51,610 bases of DNA from a virus (Duplodnaviria > Caudoviricetes). The notes beneath the pieces are model-generated. The model saw only the letters and a list, made by a program, of their open reading frames with translations. It searched no databases and was not told where the DNA came from. Below, piece after piece: positions 8,341 through 37,455 of this stretch. Both the position numbers and the translations under genes were made by a program. Location of the stretch: IMG/VR virus record IMGVR_UViG_3300008107_000554, positions 1 to 51,610 of that record; one strand, 5' to 3'. Numbering within the stretch: the stretch's first letter is position 1; each line of letters begins with the position of its first letter.

Positions 8341-15797
<7,457 letters not shown>

Positions 15798-15801
<4 letters not shown>

Positions 15802-25697: not shown

Positions 25698-26024
25698 TCA
25701 CCCTGTCTTATGCCTGTCGTCTGTCCCTATTGCACGGCGCTCGTATGAAATAAGAAACGCAATGCAACATGCTGCGTGTGCGAGGTGTGAATACCCCGTC
25801 TCCGGATCGTTATCTTGACCACGCCACCACGCCCACATATGTCGCATGAGTGCACCGAATGGACGGTGCCACGCCATACCCTTCTCCCAGTTACGTTCAC
25901 TATACTTAACAGCACCGTAAGTCAACACTCGTGCTGTTTCTTCTAGCAGTTCAGGTGGGATCAGGTCGAAGCGCAGCTTGTCGCCGTCGAACTTGACGCC
26001 TTCTTCGAGTGGGGGCTTGGTCAT
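25698..26024 (-). CDS. DUF5664 (dATP/dGTP diphosphohydrolase-type domain) protein
   Basis: GVKFDGDKLRFDLIP, VLTYGAVKYSERNWEKG and DPETGYSHLAHAACC. GGAGG RBS before ATG 26024. Confidence 0.85.
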   Translation of the reverse strand: MTKPPLEEGVKFDGDKLRFDLIPPELLEETARVLTYGAVKYSERNWEKGMAWHRPFGALMRHMWAWWRGQDNDPETGYSHLAHAACCIAFLISYERRAIGTDDRHKTG

Positions 26025-26042
26025 TCGATCCTCCAGTGGGGA

Positions 26043-26130
26043 TCGTGAGGGGCGCTGGTGGATGATAAGCCGTAGCGCAGTCTGATCTTCGACCAACACA
26101 AAACCGCAGGTTTCGCTGCGCCCCTCACGA
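26043..26130 (-). ncRNA. Candidate structured intergenic RNA closed by a perfect 13-bp stem
   Basis: tcgtgaggggcgc (26043-55) pairs with gcgcccctcacga (26118-30), with nested hairpin potential inside. Confidence 0.45.
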
Positions 26131-29595: not shown

Positions 29596-29803
29596 CGTTG
29601 GTTACCTCCAGAGTTGCATGTCCAATAGCTACATCCCGTAGGATGTTCTGATACAGTTCGAGTGTCTTGTCCGCTGCCTCCAGTGCAGTCTCTGTTTGCT
29701 CAAGGATGTCGTCACGATCCCTGAGTTCCTGCCACTGGTGGATGATCCATGCGGCGGCGATGACCAGCGCCACCCACGATACAAAGAGTTCAGTTGGTAT
29801 CAC
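29543..29803 (-). CDS. Small membrane-anchored coiled-coil protein
   Basis: Hydrophobic LFVSWVALVIAAAWII followed by a coiled coil. Confidence 0.55.
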   Translation of the reverse strand: MIPTELFVSWVALVIAAAWIIHQWQELRDRDDILEQTETALEAADKTLELYQNILRDVAIGHATLEVTNDGRIIATHCSAGKVSLH

Positions 29804-30120
29804 TTCATGTGTCCTCTCATACGGTGGAGCGTGCACAATGCAGTCACCACCTGTTGCAGTGTTCCTTCAATAGGTGGTGGTGCGTCGCTGGGACGGCCCC
29901 CGGGCAGGTCCCCGAACAGTATACCACGAATTGGTGTGTCGTTGTTCTCCTTTCTGATGAAACCAATAGCGGCGAAACGGTAGGGTGAGCGACGGCGCGA
30001 CTTGACATCCCACTCGTTGACCTTCCGAACGAACACCCCGATGTCCACCGCGAAGCTCTCCTGCATCAGCTTGGCCTTGCCACCCGGCTCGAACCCATAG
30101 CCTTCGGGAAAGTCCACCAT
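29800..30120 (-). CDS. Hypothetical protein
   Basis: ORF coupled to the stop of the vWA gene. Confidence 0.5.
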   Translation of the reverse strand: MVDFPEGYGFEPGGKAKLMQESFAVDIGVFVRKVNEWDVKSRRRSPYRFAAIGFIRKENNDTPIRGILFGDLPGGRPSDAPPPIEGTLQQVVTALCTLHRMRGHMK

Positions 30121-31247
30121 CACACACGCACCCGGCAGTGCTCACCGAAGGGAGCCGTCATGTCAGTGGTCATGGCCCAGATAACCGGGGTGGTGCAGTC
30201 GTCAGGGTAGGGGGTGTAGCCATCAGTCAGCACGATGGTGCAGGCGAGGTTGTCAGCATGACCCTCTGCATCGAGGAAGTCGAAGGCAGCACGCACATCA
30301 GTGCCGCCACCACCGTGGAAGCTGATGGACACAGTGTCATCAGGCAGGAAGCAGTCGTAGTGGGTGACCACGGCATCGAAGTAGACCACATGCAGCTTCT
30401 CAGGACGCAAGTCCTCATGGACAGTGCGAACCTCGGCAGCCATCTGTGCAAGGATGTCATCACCAATGGAGCCGGAGCAGTCCACGAGGAAAGCGATCGG
30501 ACCCATGCGCTCACCCGTCCGGCTCGGCATGTAGAAACCCTGAGACAGGAACCTACGGTTGGGCCGGGCGAAGCTGCGCTCGTCAGTCTTGTGCTTGACC
30601 ACGAACTTCTGGAGCACCTCGCGCCAGTCAACCGTTGGATTGAGGATTCTGTCCACAAGCCGGGCCATGCCAGCCGACAGTTTGCCCATCATCTTGGCAG
30701 CCTGTGCAGCCTGTGCCACCTTGACCTTCCACTCGGCAGCCTCTTGGGCTTGGTCAGAGGCAGTGCCCTCACCATCCTCAAGGTCTTGGCCAGTGCCACC
30801 CATGTCACCGCCGCCACCCTCGCCATCACTCTCGGGCAGCAAGGTGTAGATGTGCTCACTGACACCCTGACCTGCGTCATAGAGCGCCTTGTTGAGGCAG
30901 CCACCCTCGATGAACTTACCAATGCCCTCGTCGGTCAGCAGTTGGTTGATGACGTAGTCAGCGGCCTTGTTCCAACGCTTAGGGTCACGGGACTGACGGC
31001 GGAAGTTGTGCTCCAGCATGGGGTGCATGCACTCATGAGCCACGAGGAACTTAAGCTCCTCATCAGACAGGCCGGAGACAAACTCCGGGTTGTATAGCAC
31101 ACGCTTGCCATTGGTGGCAGCGGTAGGGATGATGTCAGAGTAGGTGTGCGGCATACCCAGTGCGATAGCACCGACAAAGGGATGCTCAAGGATGAGGCTG
31201 GTCTTGGCCTTGGCCAAGCGGGTCTTGAGTGTGTCGAGAGACTGCAT
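30120..31247 (-). CDS. DUF2201-type metallopeptidase-vWA protein
   Basis: TAATNG, HECMH (HExxH) and WNKAADYVIN; Gly/acidic linker; vWA MIDAS DCSGS, GGGGT and LTDG. Confidence 0.9.
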   Translation of the reverse strand: MQSLDTLKTRLAKAKTSLILEHPFVGAIALGMPHTYSDIIPTAATNGKRVLYNPEFVSGLSDEELKFLVAHECMHPMLEHNFRRQSRDPKRWNKAADYVINQLLTDEGIGKFIEGGCLNKALYDAGQGVSEHIYTLLPESDGEGGGGDMGGTGQDLEDGEGTASDQAQEAAEWKVKVAQAAQAAKMMGKLSAGMARLVDRILNPTVDWREVLQKFVVKHKTDERSFARPNRRFLSQGFYMPSRTGERMGPIAFLVDCSGSIGDDILAQMAAEVRTVHEDLRPEKLHVVYFDAVVTHYDCFLPDDTVSISFHGGGGTDVRAAFDFLDAEGHADNLACTIVLTDGYTPYPDDCTTPVIWAMTTDMTAPFGEHCRVRV

Positions 31248-31252
31248 GTGTG

Positions 31253-31681
31253 TTACTCCTGTGTGTTGTTAAGAAAGTCTTTGATCGAGGTGCCGTGGTC
31301 TACCGCTCTGAGCCTGCGGTCCACACCATACAAGTCCCAGAGATCGTGCTGGTCGCTGGCCCCGCCGTCAATCTCCACCGTGATGTCATTGTATTCCTCA
31401 CCGATACGGACGAAGGCAGTGCCAGCACCTCGATCAGCCGCAGCACCAAGCAAGGCATGGTGACACTTCACATCATCGTAGTTGTCATACCACTTGACAT
31501 TCTCGAAACTTGCGTGGAGCAGGGTCATCACATCGACGATCTCAGTGATGCTGTAGTGCGCCAAGTCCTCAGGCGAGATCGTATTGTTGAGCCTGACCTC
31601 AGCAAGGAAGGCGATGACCGCCTCCCGATTGGCAAAGGCCATGCCTATAGCCACGTCACTGTAGTATCCCATGTGTGTCAC
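31253..31681 (-). CDS. Conserved phage protein (MGYxSDV...KWY...FVRIGEE family)
   Basis: MGYYSDVAI, VKWYDNYDDV and FVRIGEEYNDI. Confidence 0.7.
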   Translation of the reverse strand: MTHMGYYSDVAIGMAFANREAVIAFLAEVRLNNTISPEDLAHYSITEIVDVMTLLHASFENVKWYDNYDDVKCHHALLGAAADRGAGTAFVRIGEEYNDITVEIDGGASDQHDLWDLYGVDRRLRAVDHGTSIKDFLNNTQE

Positions 31682-32538
31682 ACTCCCATAAAAGCGCCCA
31701 TCCGGGCCATGATGTCAGAGGCTTCGTCGATCTTGGACTGACGCAGCACCGGGTCGTTGACCACGGCATCCTTGCTCAGACCAGCCAGCTTAGCCTCCAC
31801 CTCGTAACGCATAGCTTCGAGGTTCGGGTCGTCCATAATATTCAACCGAGGCAACAGCTTACACAGTTCTGTGATGTGCTCAAGCGTGCTCTCATGGAAC
31901 CGAGACTTGGGGTCGTCGATCTTGGAGAGACGCTCAACCATATGCTTAACACGATCGTAAAGGCGTTGCCAAGCATCACGCATGGCGATGCCAGAGTTTT
32001 CTTCCACCCTGCGCTGGAGGTCAGCCTTGATACTGTCAAGCTCATCGTCTGCCAGTTGGACACGGAAGTCAGCAGTCGGCACAGGCAGGACCACCAAGTC
32101 CATGCTGAACTTAGACCGCAGGTCGCGGACATCGGGGTAGTCCTCGATGTTGTAGAGGGTGCCGAGGAACCGCTGAGCCGTGGTCTGGAGGGACGGGTAG
32201 TCCGCCAAGAACTTACTCACCACCTGCTCCCACTCAGACTTGCGCTTGCGGAAGGTGGTCATGAAGCTGAGGTAGTTGGAAGTGGGCAGCATGTGTGTGT
32301 TGTTCAGCCCCCACGGCAGGGTGTTGGTCAGGAAGTCCTTGCGGATGTCACCTGTCATGGTGTGGATGTTGGCGAGGCTGTCACTCATGGGCAGCAGCTT
32401 CTTGTGGTAGTTACCCACGTCATAGCCAGCGCCGTTGATGTCGGATACTGCCTTGGTGGCCTTCTTGTCCAGCTTGCGTGCTGTCCACTGGGAGATGTTA
32501 AGCTGCACCAGCAGTGCACGATCAGAGAGATGTGTCAT
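31678..32538 (-). CDS. DUF3150-like helical protein
   Basis: TLPW..MLP..F..FLADYP..DYP...RSKF pattern typical of proteins encoded beside AAA+/vWA genes. Confidence 0.65.
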   Translation of the reverse strand: MTHLSDRALLVQLNISQWTARKLDKKATKAVSDINGAGYDVGNYHKKLLPMSDSLANIHTMTGDIRKDFLTNTLPWGLNNTHMLPTSNYLSFMTTFRKRKSEWEQVVSKFLADYPSLQTTAQRFLGTLYNIEDYPDVRDLRSKFSMDLVVLPVPTADFRVQLADDELDSIKADLQRRVEENSGIAMRDAWQRLYDRVKHMVERLSKIDDPKSRFHESTLEHITELCKLLPRLNIMDDPNLEAMRYEVEAKLAGLSKDAVVNDPVLRQSKIDEASDIMARMGAFMGV

Positions 32539-32553
32539 GGTCTGTGTCCTTGT

Positions 32554-32859
32554 TTAAGAGATACGGTGAGCAGTGAGATCAGCCAGCACTTCGTCTGCTG
32601 ACCGGGCGGTCCAGCCATCGGGGATACTGATCGGGATTTCCCCGGTCAGGTAGTTGTCACTCGCGTCATCGGTGGCGATGATCCGGGCGTTGAACGAGGT
32701 GGAGTAGTCCATCTCATCAACTAAGTCCCATATGGACTTGCCACCATGATCGAGGTCAGCGCGGACTTTCTCCACGGCGGCAGCGAGGTTGTCTGCTTCC
32801 ACCTCAACGTGGCCATAGACACTGACGTCATGGGCTAGGGTGAAGTTGAATGTGGGCAT
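32554..32859 (-). CDS. Hypothetical protein
   Basis: VEVEADNLAAAVEKV; AAGGAG RBS. Confidence 0.6.
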   Translation of the reverse strand: MPTFNFTLAHDVSVYGHVEVEADNLAAAVEKVRADLDHGGKSIWDLVDEMDYSTSFNARIIATDDASDNYLTGEIPISIPDGWTARSADEVLADLTAHRIS

Positions 32860-32862
32860 GTG

Positions 32863-33072
32863 TTACTCCTTGTTGATGAGACGGAGATAGGCTTGGTAAG
32901 CGGTCCACTGGTCAGGGAACTGTTGCTTGAGGTAGTCGGTGAGGGAGAGCATACGATCGGACCAGTCACGACTGTCCCGATACTCGATATACTCACCAGT
33001 CATGCGGCCAAGGCCACCGAACCCGTCGATGGCCTTGATGTAGACGAGATACCCTGCAAAGGTGCCTGTCAT
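32863..33072 (-). CDS. Hypothetical protein
   Basis: MTGTFAGYLVYIKA.. starts immediately after the ATPase stop. Confidence 0.55.
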   Translation of the reverse strand: MTGTFAGYLVYIKAIDGFGGLGRMTGEYIEYRDSRDWSDRMLSLTDYLKQQFPDQWTAYQAYLRLINKE

Positions 33073-33073
33073 A

Positions 33074-34066
33074 TCAGAACAGCACCGACTGATGCTTGAT
33101 GGACCAGTCAATGAAGCCCTTGGTCGAGGTGACGGCGGGATCACGACGGACAGCCATCGACATAGCCAGCACTGAGAACTCAGCCGGGCAGCGGGACAGG
33201 TAAGTGACAGCCCGGTCGATGTTGGCCTGAGAGATGCGTGATGCGATGGCACCAGACAGAGCGTAGAGAGTGGCCGGATCGGACGGCACATCGGCACCAT
33301 CGGGGTTGAGTAGGATGGCATCAGGGTTAGGCAGCTTGCGGTAAATCTTGAGGAACCCCACGAACTCAGCCGCAGCCCCCTCACCAACGGCACCCTTGAA
33401 GCAGTCGAACTCAGCCTCAGCAGGGACAGCACCGAGCACAGCACTGACACCCTCAGCCCACGAACGAGGCGTTGGGTTCTGGTCCTTGTTGGCATCGAAG
33501 TCATGGAGCAGACCGGGACGGAAGCGGATGAAGGCCACGACCTCAGACTTGACACCATGTGTCAGTGCCCACGACGACCAGTCATCGAGGTTGGTGTCGA
33601 ACTCTAGGACAGTCTCACGATTGCGGAGGTGGGACAGCACCCGGTTAGCCCCGGCACGATCCGACTGCCTGTTACCAGTGGAGACGACAGTCCAGCCCTT
33701 GGCAAGGGGTGTGCCGTGGAGATTGCGTGCTTGGCAGATGTTAGCCAGCACTTTCTGGATGTCGGCCGGGGCTTGGTTACGATCATCGAAGCAGAGCACA
33801 CCACCACGACCGTCGTCGTAACGAGAGCCAACGGCAGGGAACCAGTCGGGGATCATGTAACGCAGGGTCTCGCCCCCAATGACAGGGATGCCGAAGTCCT
33901 CGACCAGCATGGTCGGCAGGTGACGCTCGACGTAGTGCAGACCGAGAGCCTCAGTCACAGACTGAACGAGGGTGGTCTTGCCACCACCCGGCGCCCCCTC
34001 GATAGCCACGGTGCGGTTGATCGAGATGAGGTCTTTAAGTGTGTCAGACAGAAGGGATGGACGCAT
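33074..34066 (-). CDS. MoxR-like AAA+ ATPase
   Basis: Walker A GAPGGGKT, Walker B LCFDD, sensor I TGNR, Arg finger LRNR and sensor II TPRSW. Confidence 0.9.
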   Translation of the reverse strand: MRPSLLSDTLKDLISINRTVAIEGAPGGGKTTLVQSVTEALGLHYVERHLPTMLVEDFGIPVIGGETLRYMIPDWFPAVGSRYDDGRGGVLCFDDRNQAPADIQKVLANICQARNLHGTPLAKGWTVVSTGNRQSDRAGANRVLSHLRNRETVLEFDTNLDDWSSWALTHGVKSEVVAFIRFRPGLLHDFDANKDQNPTPRSWAEGVSAVLGAVPAEAEFDCFKGAVGEGAAAEFVGFLKIYRKLPNPDAILLNPDGADVPSDPATLYALSGAIASRISQANIDRAVTYLSRCPAEFSVLAMSMAVRRDPAVTSTKGFIDWSIKHQSVLF

Positions 34067-34087
34067 TGTGTATTACTCCATGTGTTG

Positions 34088-34151
34088 TGGCTTGTCTCAT
34101 CAGTGCCACGGTAGCCATCCGTGGCAGACTGGGGTTGCCCCCAGTTTCGAC
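34088..34151 (-). ncRNA. Type II hammerhead ribozyme with loop I pseudoknot
   Basis: The minus strand reads GUC-GAAA-CUGGGG(GCAA)CCCCAG-UC^-UGCCACGG(AUGGCUA)CCGUGGCA-CUGAUGA-GAC-AAGCCA. All core nucleotides and three stems are present. Confidence 0.92.
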
Positions 34152-34167
34152 TCATAGGGAATTTGCC

Positions 34168-34950
34168 TCACCCCCACCGCTTCTTGCTGGACTGGATGGC
34201 AGTAAGCTGCTTGTAGGCAGTGACATAGGCCACCTCGGTCTCCTCGATGCAGTCGTGATAGGTCAGCACTTGGCGCCGGATGGCGTCGAGGTGAGAGTCA
34301 ACAGTGACATAAGTGGACATGCCACGGGCAATGTCAGCGTAGCGATCCGGCTCATCGAGGCAAGCCAAGGCGATGTTAGACAGGCTGACAGTGCCCCAAC
34401 GCTCACCTTGTCTAGGGTCAATGCCCAGTCTGACTTGGGTCTGGACCCACAACTTGAACTGGTCGAAGCCCTTGGCACAGGCAGCATTAGCCTTCTTGCG
34501 GTTGACACTGTAACGGGTGAAGGGCTTGGTCCCAGCGATGATGTTAAGGTTCTTGTCCAGTGTGGCACAGCCATCGACCAGATACCCCATGCTGGTGTTG
34601 TTGATAGCACTGTTGCGTATCCACAGGACAGGACCAACAGGGTTGGTGTAGCTGGCCCAGACAGCACCGCGGAGCACTTGGTTGACCGCCTCGTCTGTCA
34701 GCTTGGAAGCATAGGGTTCGAGGTCAATGGTGCCATCGTCATGGTAAGTGATGATGTCAGTCTGGTAGAGCCGGATGGCGACAGAGCCATTGTCAAGTTT
34801 GCGGATGGTGAGGTTGTCATTGCGCCGCTGACCAAGGGGTCTCGTGTCAGTGGACCGCCCCCTGATGGGGACGATGCTGTCATACTTAGCCAGAGCTTGC
34901 TCATAGGAAGTGATGCCGCCACGGGGCAGGACGATGTTAGAGCCGAACAT
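34168..34950 (-). CDS. Hypothetical early protein
   Basis: 260 aa; YDSIVPIRGR..RPLGQRR, LYQTDII; AAGGAG RBS. Confidence 0.7.
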   Translation of the reverse strand: MFGSNIVLPRGGITSYEQALAKYDSIVPIRGRSTDTRPLGQRRNDNLTIRKLDNGSVAIRLYQTDIITYHDDGTIDLEPYASKLTDEAVNQVLRGAVWASYTNPVGPVLWIRNSAINNTSMGYLVDGCATLDKNLNIIAGTKPFTRYSVNRKKANAACAKGFDQFKLWVQTQVRLGIDPRQGERWGTVSLSNIALACLDEPDRYADIARGMSTYVTVDSHLDAIRRQVLTYHDCIEETEVAYVTAYKQLTAIQSSKKRWG

Positions 34951-35178: not shown

Positions 35179-35388
35179 TCAAAGTCCTTTCAAATGTGAG
35201 AGCCACTTGTAGACAGTGGACTGGCCGACGTTGAACTGAGCGGCAGCCTCCTTGACAGAGACACCCTCCACTCTGACGAGGCGCAGCACTTCGGCTCTCG
35301 TGGTGTCGTCGAGACCATAGGCTGGGTGGTAATCAGGGACGACTATGAGATAGTCGGGGCTGGATGGTGTAAAGGCCAGCCGCATCAC
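35179..35388 (-). CDS. Helix-turn-helix protein
   Basis: EGVSVKEAAAQFNVGQSTVYKWL. Confidence 0.75.
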   Translation of the reverse strand: MMRLAFTPSSPDYLIVVPDYHPAYGLDDTTRAEVLRLVRVEGVSVKEAAAQFNVGQSTVYKWLSHLKGL

Positions 35389-36406: not shown

Positions 36407-36438
36407 AAAAAACCCGCCCGGTGGTTAGCCGGGCGGGT
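36407..36438 (-). terminator. Rho-independent terminator
   Basis: ACCCGCCCGG-ctaacca-CCGGGCGGGT followed by a U-run on the minus strand. Confidence 0.85.
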
Positions 36439-36443
36439 CAGGG

Positions 36444-37221: not shown

Positions 37222-37455
37222 CTGCTAATTTATAAAAATCTGCGACAATTTATAACAAAAAACGCGCGCCGCGCGGTCGCAGGCAGGCATGGGGGGTGGG
37301 GGGTTGGACAGCGGTCGCGCGGCCCCCCGCTATTGTAGTAAACCTCTTACAACACAACCCAAAAATACCAATCTTTACACCTGTACATCACCCGAACATT
37401 TTATAACACCCCTGCCAAAAATTTTCCCGGCCCAAAAAACCAAATCTTTACACTA

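Follow-up and report, generated by a model that had tools for sequence, protein, structure and literature searches.

What do the genes that follow a hammerhead ribozyme in an uncultured phage encode, and does the ribozyme belong with them? The question is raised by IMG/VR record IMGVR_UViG_3300008107_000554 (Duplodnaviria; Caudoviricetes), which was analyzed over its whole length of 51,610 bases, referred to here as the window. With completeness estimated at 94% (CheckV), the record represents almost the entire genome of an uncultured podovirus-like freshwater phage. On its minus strand, a type II hammerhead is followed in order by genes encoding a MoxR-class AAA_5 ATPase, two small open reading frames (ORFs), a DUF3150-like protein, an orphan protein designated MGYYSDV, and a protein that joins a zincin-type (HExxH) metallopeptidase part to a von Willebrand factor A (vWA) domain.

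An earlier, sequence-only reading of this DNA took the entire set to be an undescribed, ribozyme-headed early module that recognizes, unfolds, and cleaves a host defence complex. Every element that it named is present at the stated positions, on the minus strand, and its gene identities agree with Rfam, Pfam, and PHROG comparisons. On balance, we favour a narrower reading, in which three of the genes encode a capture-remodel-cleave trio and the hammerhead is an optional layer of punctuation added to it. Gene order and motif conservation across relatives, the structure and covariation of the ribozyme, and its placement in related genomes are presented in turn, and alternative explanations are weighed alongside the data that bear on them.

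Conserved gene order and lineage-specific inserts

Searching IMG/VR with the DUF3150-like protein yielded 126 confirmed relatives, from which 80 loci (numbered with the prefix L) were kept. The order ATPase, DUF3150-like, zincin-vWA on one strand was found by tblastn in 74 of these 80, and in the other six the missing gene would lie past the end of the contig. Many relatives have stop/start overlaps or gaps of only 10-15 nucleotides (nt) between the trio genes. The window retains the same order, with the ATPase (330 amino acids) at 33074-34066, the DUF3150-like protein (286 amino acids) at 31678-32538, and the zincin-vWA protein (375 amino acids) at 30120-31247, all on the minus strand, and with three small genes inserted among them.

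The first of these inserts is an ORF of 46 amino acids (32863-33003, minus strand), which would encode 69 amino acids if the start were the ATG at 33072, overlapping the ATPase stop. Relatives were found at three of the 80 loci (L003, L004, and L010), and it belongs to no Pfam or PHROG family. The second, of 101 amino acids (32554-32859, minus strand), likewise has relatives at three loci (L006, L007, and L008) and matches no Pfam or PHROG family above cut-off; a contig of run X16 joins 32542 to 32867, which points to a near relative without this ORF. The third is the MGYYSDV orphan (139 amino acids; 31253-31672, minus strand), for which the ATG at 31672 is the probable start, the ORF lister having taken a GTG at 31681. 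Relatives occur at six loci (L003, L004, L009, L010, L011, and L065), and no Pfam, PHROG, PADLOC, or NCBIfam family was matched. In the Atlas, this protein is stored from residue 4, read as M, within phage-only clusters that have no Pfam family. Judged by this distribution, all three are variable, lineage-specific inserts, and their inclusion as working parts of the module (present as they are at only 3, 3, and 6 of the 80 loci) is not upheld.

Upstream of the ribozyme lies a gene of 260 amino acids (34168-34950, minus strand), homologues of which precede the ATPase at 17 of the 80 loci. Its product matches no Pfam, PHROG, PADLOC, or NCBIfam family and falls into phage-only hypothetical clusters in the Atlas. 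Atlas look-ups of the MGYYSDV and 260-amino-acid proteins returned no common Pfam family and one weak lead, Kyano_Gp96.

Conserved domains and catalytic motifs

In Pfam, the zincin-vWA protein matches DUF2201_N (172 bits against a cut-off of 23.2; expectation value (E) 2.6e-50; residues 8-243) followed by DUF2201 (68.6 bits against a cut-off of 26.4; E 7e-19; residues 251-371), and in PHROG it matches phrog_1314 at 2.6e-92. The HExxH residues (H71, E72, and H75) together with H80 are invariant in 58 of 58 relatives, E79 is kept in 57 of the 58, and HExxH is also intact in the N4, SABI, MinM2, and plasmid homologues. Residues D256, S258, S260, T316, and D342, which make up the metal-ion-dependent adhesion site (MIDAS) of the vWA part, are equally invariant (58/58). 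In an AlphaFold2 (AF2) model with a mean predicted local distance difference test (pLDDT) score of 75.7, residues 246-375 adopt a vWA fold (Z 14.9; root-mean-square deviation 2.3 A over 127 residues against 6rhv_C). Foldseek aligned the model with VWF A2 at E 2.4e-04, and the fold-search list was filled by vWA domains. As far as can be judged from sequence, such strict conservation of catalytic motifs argues for an active enzyme rather than a scaffold. The label 'HNH endonuclease', which PHROG 1314 carries and which appears in many GenBank phage records including that of N4 gp25, is a misnomer contradicted by the Pfam domains, HExxH, MIDAS, and vWA fold.

The ATPase matches AAA_5 (27.2 bits against a cut-off of 22; residues 21-150) and phrog_1297 (6.3e-65), and its MinM2 homologue is annotated as a 'MoxR family ATPase'. 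All 54 unique relatives keep its Walker A motif (GxPGGGKT), N132, and R137 unchanged; from their positions, N132 would be sensor 1 and R137 the arginine finger. Comparison of the ATPase with the PDB by sequence and profile returned nothing. Taken together, the invariant HExxH, MIDAS, and Walker A motifs fit the recognize-unfold-cleave scheme put forward earlier.

The third protein is less readily classified. Its match to PF11348 covers nearly the whole profile (positions 3-245 of 257) but reaches 18 bits (E 0.0019), under the cut-off of 24.9. Among 25 close relatives, no more than nine match that family at E<=0.01 (best 3.4e-04). Because the Pfam threshold was not reached and few relatives match, we refer to it as DUF3150-like; it is 31% identical to a MinM2 protein named 'DUF3150 domain-containing' in GenBank. 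The family is large: of 1.84 billion proteins searched with a profile built on it, 8,501 cluster representatives matched at E<=0.001. In the AF2 model (pLDDT 77.7), an N-terminal alpha/beta part is accompanied by long helices and, at the C terminus, by a four-helix bundle. Foldseek gave no match at E<=0.001, sequence and profile comparison with the PDB gave nothing meaningful, and the VIA-align matches, the best at Z 10.4, covered residues 164-286 and hardly any of the N-terminal half. Prediction of a complex between the zincin-vWA and DUF3150-like proteins, both supplied as alignments, scored 0.00 against a mark of 0.32, a result that speaks neither for nor against binding.

Relatives in phages and plasmids

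The same three families in the same order were found in the cyanophages MinM2, Pag-Yong1, and Pra-JY27 and in Burkholderiales conjugative plasmids and megaplasmids, with DUF3150-like proteins 31-37% identical to that of the window. In cyanophage MinM2 the trio is conserved at about 30% identity, and in plasmid pBVIE02 (Bcep1808_7108-7110) it adjoins type IV secretion genes. A DUF3150-like gene was found in 59 plasmid records, mostly from Burkholderiales, 29 of which are typed as conjugative. A zincin-vWA gene accompanies it in at least 52 of these records, and the spacing between the two alignments is 54-116 nt in 50 of the 52. In a Simplicispira plasmid, the trio sits among small ORFs, a DNA cytosine methyltransferase gene, and a DUF4942 gene. 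The expectation that such gene trios occur on both phages and conjugative elements is therefore borne out by the 74 viral loci, MinM2, pBVIE02, and the plasmid records. The cyanophage and plasmid versions differ from that of the window in that no hammerhead was detected in the loci examined, and in that the plasmid copies are flanked by type IV secretion and methyltransferase genes. A blastn search of phage records with the module gave no match.

By BLASTP, the ATPase is 27% identical to N4 gp24 (E 4e-30) and the zincin-vWA protein 27% identical to N4 gp25 (E 1e-31). These Schitoviridae proteins (PHROG 1297 and 1314) resemble those of the window over near full length, the ATPase gene comes first, the pair lies ahead of nucleotide and replication genes, and both HExxH and the DxSGS MIDAS are conserved. 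In contrast to the window, N4 and SABI have no detectable DUF3150-like gene between the pair. Gp24 and gp25 are listed among 14 N4-like core genes and called middle transcripts in the available part of Chan et al. (2014; PMC4193335), and are given the function 'Unknown' in that of Zhao et al. (2009; PMC2784036). In the accessible portions of the literature, we found no paper on the function of DUF3150 or DUF2201, and the papers examined on N4 gp24/gp25 assign none. The trio is thus a member of a known, uncharacterized kind, its ATPase/vWA pair having been in print as N4 core genes since 2009-2014, and the suggestion of an undescribed system has to be withdrawn. Its description as early was drawn from gene position, which sits uneasily with the middle transcripts of N4. 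Zincin-vWA relatives were found in 664 phage records and DUF3150-like relatives in only three, which makes the trio a subset of a wider ATPase/zincin-vWA pair.

How such a pair might act is suggested by the characterized MoxR-vWA chaperones, namely RavA-ViaA, CbbQ-CbbO, NorQ-NorD, CobS-CobT, and BchI-BchD. As in these pairs, an AAA_5-type ATPase gene adjoins a gene for a MIDAS-bearing vWA protein; the window differs in having an N-terminal zincin with intact HExxH, a third conserved protein, and mobile-element carriers rather than metabolic operons. In the general scheme given in the available text of Kaur et al. (2020; PMC7159879), the vWA protein captures and the ATPase remodels. The same source describes ternary MoxR-vWA conflict systems with VMAP, iSTAND, or FtsH, which resemble the trio in their three-component logic and occasional peptidase effectors. 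There, the effectors are C-terminal to vWA, metallopeptidases are rare, and the systems are chromosomal and found in multicellular bacteria, whereas in the window the third component is DUF3150-like, the peptidase is N-terminal to vWA, and the genes are those of phages and plasmids. VMAP, iSTAND, and FtsH were not among the Pfam matches of the module proteins at E<=0.01, the presence of VMAP models in that Pfam copy being unconfirmed.

An alternative is that, like other MoxR-vWA pairs, the ATPase and vWA parts load or remodel a complex of the element's own (replisome, virion, or secretion apparatus), the zincin making a maturation cut in a phage protein, possibly the DUF3150-like protein. Characterized MoxR-vWA pairs do help to assemble complexes, an archaeal virus tail assembly system among them (PMC7159879, available text), and in roseophage RPP1, according to the part of PMC4193335 at hand, virion-protein genes lie near the gp24/gp25 homologues. 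The adjacent or overlapping DUF3150-like and zincin-vWA genes would suit a dedicated substrate or partner, and the pBVIE02 trio abuts secretion genes. Yet most of the 664 phage records with a zincin-vWA relative lack a detectable DUF3150-like gene, and the two ORFs that SABI has between its N4-like pair do not resemble one, so that DUF3150 is not a universal substrate. In the window, moreover, the module occupies the replication arm, far from the structural genes. We consider an assembly or maturation role, which accords with the MoxR-vWA precedents, unlikely.

Still less probable, in our estimate, is the role that the sequence-only reading had proposed: shortly after the DNA has entered, the trio would recognize an immune protein or complex of the host, unfold it, and cleave it. 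Carriers of the trio must establish themselves in new cells, as is true of phages and conjugative plasmids, and they include pBVIE02 and the Simplicispira plasmid; the neighbourhood of the latter, with its methyltransferase and DUF4942 genes, is in keeping with such a function, as are the intact protease and MIDAS motifs and the position of the module ahead of the replication genes. Nothing that we found, however, points to a host defence target. Searches of PADLOC-DB 2.0 gave no credible match, with three faint P-loop matches for the ATPase (E 0.00095-0.0033 over 19-42 residues) and none for the other five module proteins, although this is a weak test, the library consisting of defence rather than anti-defence models. 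The words vWA, von Willebrand, MoxR, AAA, peptidase, and protease are absent from the main text, as available, of PMC11541004 on anti-defence in plasmid leading regions. That gp24/gp25 belong to the core of all N4-like phages across many hosts fits housekeeping better than the countering of one defence, and the three proteins are well conserved (mean column identity 67-68%) rather than fast-evolving.

Structure and conservation of the hammerhead ribozyme

The type II hammerhead (34081-34154, minus strand) was identified with both Rfam RF02276 and a covariance model of our own. RF02276 matched 34152-34085 over model positions 1-66 of 66, with 40.0 bits against a gathering score of 37 (E 9.3e-05). 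This was the sole Rfam match at gathering score in the window, and the sole hammerhead at E<=1. The ribozyme occupies the 101-nt spacer between the stop of the 260-amino-acid ORF (34168) and the ATPase ATG (34066). Its catalytic core is complete in sequence (CUGAUGA, GAAA within CGAAAC, and the cleavage triplet GUC), and the hammerhead topology is the minimum-energy fold (-28.4 kcal/mol; z -3.09), with stems I and III closed by loops and stem II open.

The covariance model, termed R1, was built from 17 relatives and scores the window ribozyme at 87 bits. It gave 31 matches in 21 of 83 sources, every one on the gene strand, and a pattern scan recovered the same sites. Apart from the window, the ribozyme thus recurs in 20 of 82 sources (80 viral loci and two phage-record loci), all 20 being viral loci. 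All 18 stem pairs are formed in each of 24 distinct homologues, with changes on both sides at 14 of the 18, whereas sliding the partner by 1-3 columns as a control lowers pairing to 28-45%. Core columns are invariant in 31 homologues except for a CUGAYGA variant. A pseudoknot joins loop I to the 3' tail (UGGCU/AGCCA), with 94.7% of cells paired and one pair changed from CG to UA in two distinct sequences. The hammerhead is, on these comparative grounds, genuine, because its Rfam score exceeds the threshold, its stem pairs are kept, and many compensatory changes are present in relatives. Cleavage is predicted after GUC, between 34127 and 34126; the ATPase message would then have a 60-nt leader, with the stem I hairpin at its start.

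Hammerheads located between phage genes have been known from the literature since 2011. In the available part of Perreault et al. (2011; PMC3088659), type II hammerheads are described as having a loop I/3'-tail pseudoknot, and prophage hammerheads as flanking single genes or short gene blocks. In haloviruses HF1 and HF2, the same text reports, 13 nt separate a hammerhead from the early helicase gene that follows it, and the 5' end of a transcript has been mapped no more than 3 nt from the cleavage site. The window ribozyme resembles the RF02276 hammerheads of that account in its consensus core, open stem II, and pseudoknot, and in its placement between co-directional genes near a start codon. 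No structural difference was found; what is new is the conserved junction before a gp24-like ATPase gene, in two clades of one uncultured phage family.

Placement of the ribozyme across relatives

Ribozyme position could be assessed at 65 of the 80 viral loci, namely those in which the ATPase gene is complete and preceded by 300 nt or more of sequence. A hammerhead lies 7-44 nt before the ATPase ATG in 16 of these and elsewhere only in four, with none in the remaining 45. In a tree of the ATPases, the ribozyme is present at the ATPase junction throughout the window's clade (8/8 rows, plus L081) and in 6 of the 9 rows of a second clade; a clade of 30 rows has none. Negative results were based on the type II model, the type II pattern scan, and Rfam at gathering score: Rfam found nothing at gathering score in 11 loci of the negative clades and no hammerhead at E<=1 in MinM2 or in the locus of the N4-like phage SABI, and R1 gave no match in MinM2, in an N4-like phage, at two plasmid loci, or on two contigs from metagenome-assembled genomes (MAGs).

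Additional copies are found elsewhere. At six loci (L020, L036, L037, L039, L043, and L052), a second hammerhead lies ahead of the 260-amino-acid gene. L006 and L007 have an inserted gene of about 143 amino acids with its own hammerhead, placed between two ribozymes (L006:4028-4642), and the leader and first codons are repeated after each ribozyme, so that MENTM opens both ORFs. Such repetition suggests a cassette in which ribozyme, ribosome site, and start codon travel as one. The ribozyme of L052 and L054 stands in front of a block of three additional small genes, themselves followed by the ATPase gene, and L075 has three hammerheads of a variant form, one of them between the ATPase and DUF3150-like genes. 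At all 31 R1 matches, an ORF of at least 40 amino acids starts between -6 and +32 nt from the 3' end of the model.

These copies raise the question of whether the position before the ATPase is a by-product, the ribozyme belonging in fact with the upstream 260-amino-acid gene or forming, with its ribosome site, a portable cassette. The 260-amino-acid gene is flanked on both sides by hammerheads in the six loci listed above, and the repeated leader in L006/L007, the three copies of L075, and the displaced ribozyme of L052/L054 also count in favour of this explanation. Opposed to this, the window, at its level of completeness, has a hammerhead found only before the ATPase, and all eight members of its ATPase clade, together with L081, keep the ribozyme at that junction. 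We judge this explanation possible, but on the doubtful side. Because other ribozyme copies precede other genes, we read the hammerhead as operon punctuation that would be tied to the ribosome-binding site, fixed at the ATPase junction in this lineage and not a defining part of the module. Of the claim that ribozyme and module co-occur, the non-random association in the window's clades (16 of 65 loci) thus stands; the claim that the hammerhead defines the module does not, given its absence from 45 testable relatives and from MinM2, the N4-like phage, and the two plasmid loci.

Other sequences were observed in the same interval. A small protein with the conserved C-terminal motif '...YFDDK..AK....VVSYGPDH..Y' has tblastn matches at 28 loci (L021, L023, L038, L052, L065, and others; e.g. 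L052:3849-4163), and at 26 of them its gene lies 12-34 nt before the ATPase. In L052/L054 it is encoded 421 nt upstream of the ATPase and is preceded by the ribozyme. The window has no credible match (best E 0.91). In hammerhead-free clades, this gene takes the slot held in the window by the ribozyme; possibly it represents an optional fourth member of the module. Immediately ahead of the ATPase in L015 (4790-4946) and L075 (4770-4926) is a repeated GC-rich hairpin-like unit (tcaggggcagcggc.ccctgcgac); the clade with this unit includes L075, the bearer of three variant hammerheads. In L052 (3037-3671), a stretch located between the 260-amino-acid gene and the second hammerhead is of low complexity and open in several frames (Gly/Tyr/Asp-rich; Arg/Leu-rich), and is probably a simple-repeat insertion.

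Proposed mechanism

In the reading that we favour, and by analogy with MoxR-vWA pairs, the MIDAS site of the vWA domain would capture an acidic residue of a target protein, an ATPase ring would then remodel the captured complex, and the fused zincin, with its catalytic motifs intact, would cleave the target or a partner. The DUF3150-like protein may serve as adaptor, regulator, or first substrate. The machine would be made before or during replication and, given that the module lies ahead of the replication genes and is common to conjugative plasmids, probably serves the establishment of incoming DNA. The hammerhead would constitute a separate, optional layer, cleaving the polycistronic transcript at a site 60 nt ahead of the ATPase start codon. 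The message from the genes upstream would then end in the stem III hairpin with a 2',3'-cyclic phosphate, and the module message would start with a 5'-hydroxyl and the stem I hairpin directly ahead of the ribosome-binding site. A 5'-hydroxyl and a terminal hairpin should slow 5'-end-dependent decay of bacterial mRNA. Cleavage in vivo would thereby uncouple the stability and dosage of the module mRNA from those of the upstream genes.

Several observations weigh against this reading. The Walker B motif of the ATPase (residues 93-95) is F-D-D rather than D-E in 54 of 54 relatives and in two plasmid homologues (L083 and L084), and ATP hydrolysis may therefore be slow or regulated; the MinM2, N4, and SABI ATPases have D-E. 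The shared D-D variant also links the phage lineage to the versions on Burkholderiales plasmids. The peptidase part is tied to a solved protein solely through a weak match in sequence to MJ1213, the minigluzincin selecase (E 0.009-0.09 across a strand and the HExxH helix). The structural matches of the DUF3150-like protein are generic four-helix bundles only, which makes its role a guess. Regarding the ribozyme, the count of 18 pairs in every homologue was taken from an alignment fitted to the model, which favours pairing. A hammerhead went undetected in 45 of the 65 testable relatives, and is thus dispensable for the module. Finally, Rfam at gathering score recovered only one of six R1 matches in one locus set checked, so the ribozyme negatives hold for type II and are weaker for other types (weak type I/III).

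A more specific version extends this scheme to a shared establishment protease of phages and conjugative plasmids. The MIDAS-bearing vWA domain would seize a DNA-associated protein, the ATPase would extract it, and the zincin would cut it, with the DUF3150-like protein as specificity adaptor and the hammerhead, in this phage lineage, setting dose and timing by releasing a hairpin-capped, 5'-hydroxyl message that starts at the module. The machine would act in the manner of AAA+-assisted metalloproteases that clear DNA-protein adducts; its target, encountered or carried by the incoming DNA, might be a sentinel or repressor of the host, or else a pilot or terminal protein. We regard this combination, taken as a whole, as speculative and very unlikely to be right in full.

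Genome setting and neighbouring genes

On the plus strand of the window, PHROG matches include endolysin, internal virion protein, terminase large subunit, portal/adaptor, major head protein, and tail fibres. The minus-strand arm runs from about 36.4 kilobases (kb) to 15.8 kb and ends in genes for DNA polymerase, exonuclease, helicase, and a Prim-Pol/DUF927 primase. The module lies in this arm, between small ORFs near a divergent control region and the replication genes. Strong terminator-like hairpins at 36411-36439 (11 pairs, nine of them GC) and 37263-37275 (five GC pairs), both on the minus strand and each followed by a T run, sit in the region where the two gene arms diverge. The search for tRNA genes in the window returned none.

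Directly downstream of the module, the GTG start of an ORF of 107 amino acids (29800-30123, minus strand) overlaps the zincin-vWA stop, making it a possible coupled downstream gene; relatives occur in 7 of the 80 viral loci (L004-L008, L010-L011 region), and no Pfam or PHROG family was matched. Among the small ORFs upstream, 35179-35388 (minus strand) encodes a 69-amino-acid helix-turn-helix protein (HTH_23, 9.1e-10) that resembles sigma-70 region 4 and is a candidate early regulator. Further along the minus strand, a protein of 133 amino acids (25698-26099) matches PF18909, the dATP/dGTP diphosphohydrolase N-terminal domain, at E 8.8e-36. Such diphosphohydrolases go along with phage DNA-base replacement pathways (2-aminoadenine genomes). 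On the plus strand, a protein of 2,486 amino acids (8341-15801) has no Pfam family, and only its C-terminal 500 residues match phrog_11358 (3,431 positions, function unknown); it could be a giant virion or injected protein.

Among genome-collection contigs, a profile search with the DUF3150-like family found only two loci, on MAG contigs labelled actinobacterium and Burkholderiaceae. Both contigs are phage-sized, the Burkholderiaceae one (L087) measuring 56.4 kb, and the plasmid homologues are almost all from Burkholderiales. This is a weak hint of a betaproteobacterial host, two MAG loci being too few to name one.

Implications for phages and plasmids

The gp24/gp25-type pair is among the few genes common to all N4-like phages, and its zincin-vWA member has relatives in the 664 phage records noted above. 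Together with a DUF3150-like partner, itself represented by about 8,500 clusters, the ATPase/zincin-vWA pair also rides on plasmids. The window separates a conserved three-gene core from lineage-specific inserts and shows strict conservation of the catalytic motifs. It also provides a well-supported natural type II hammerhead that is fixed at one junction with constant spacing to the ribosome-binding site, and that offers a clean system for examining the effects of phage hammerheads on operon expression.

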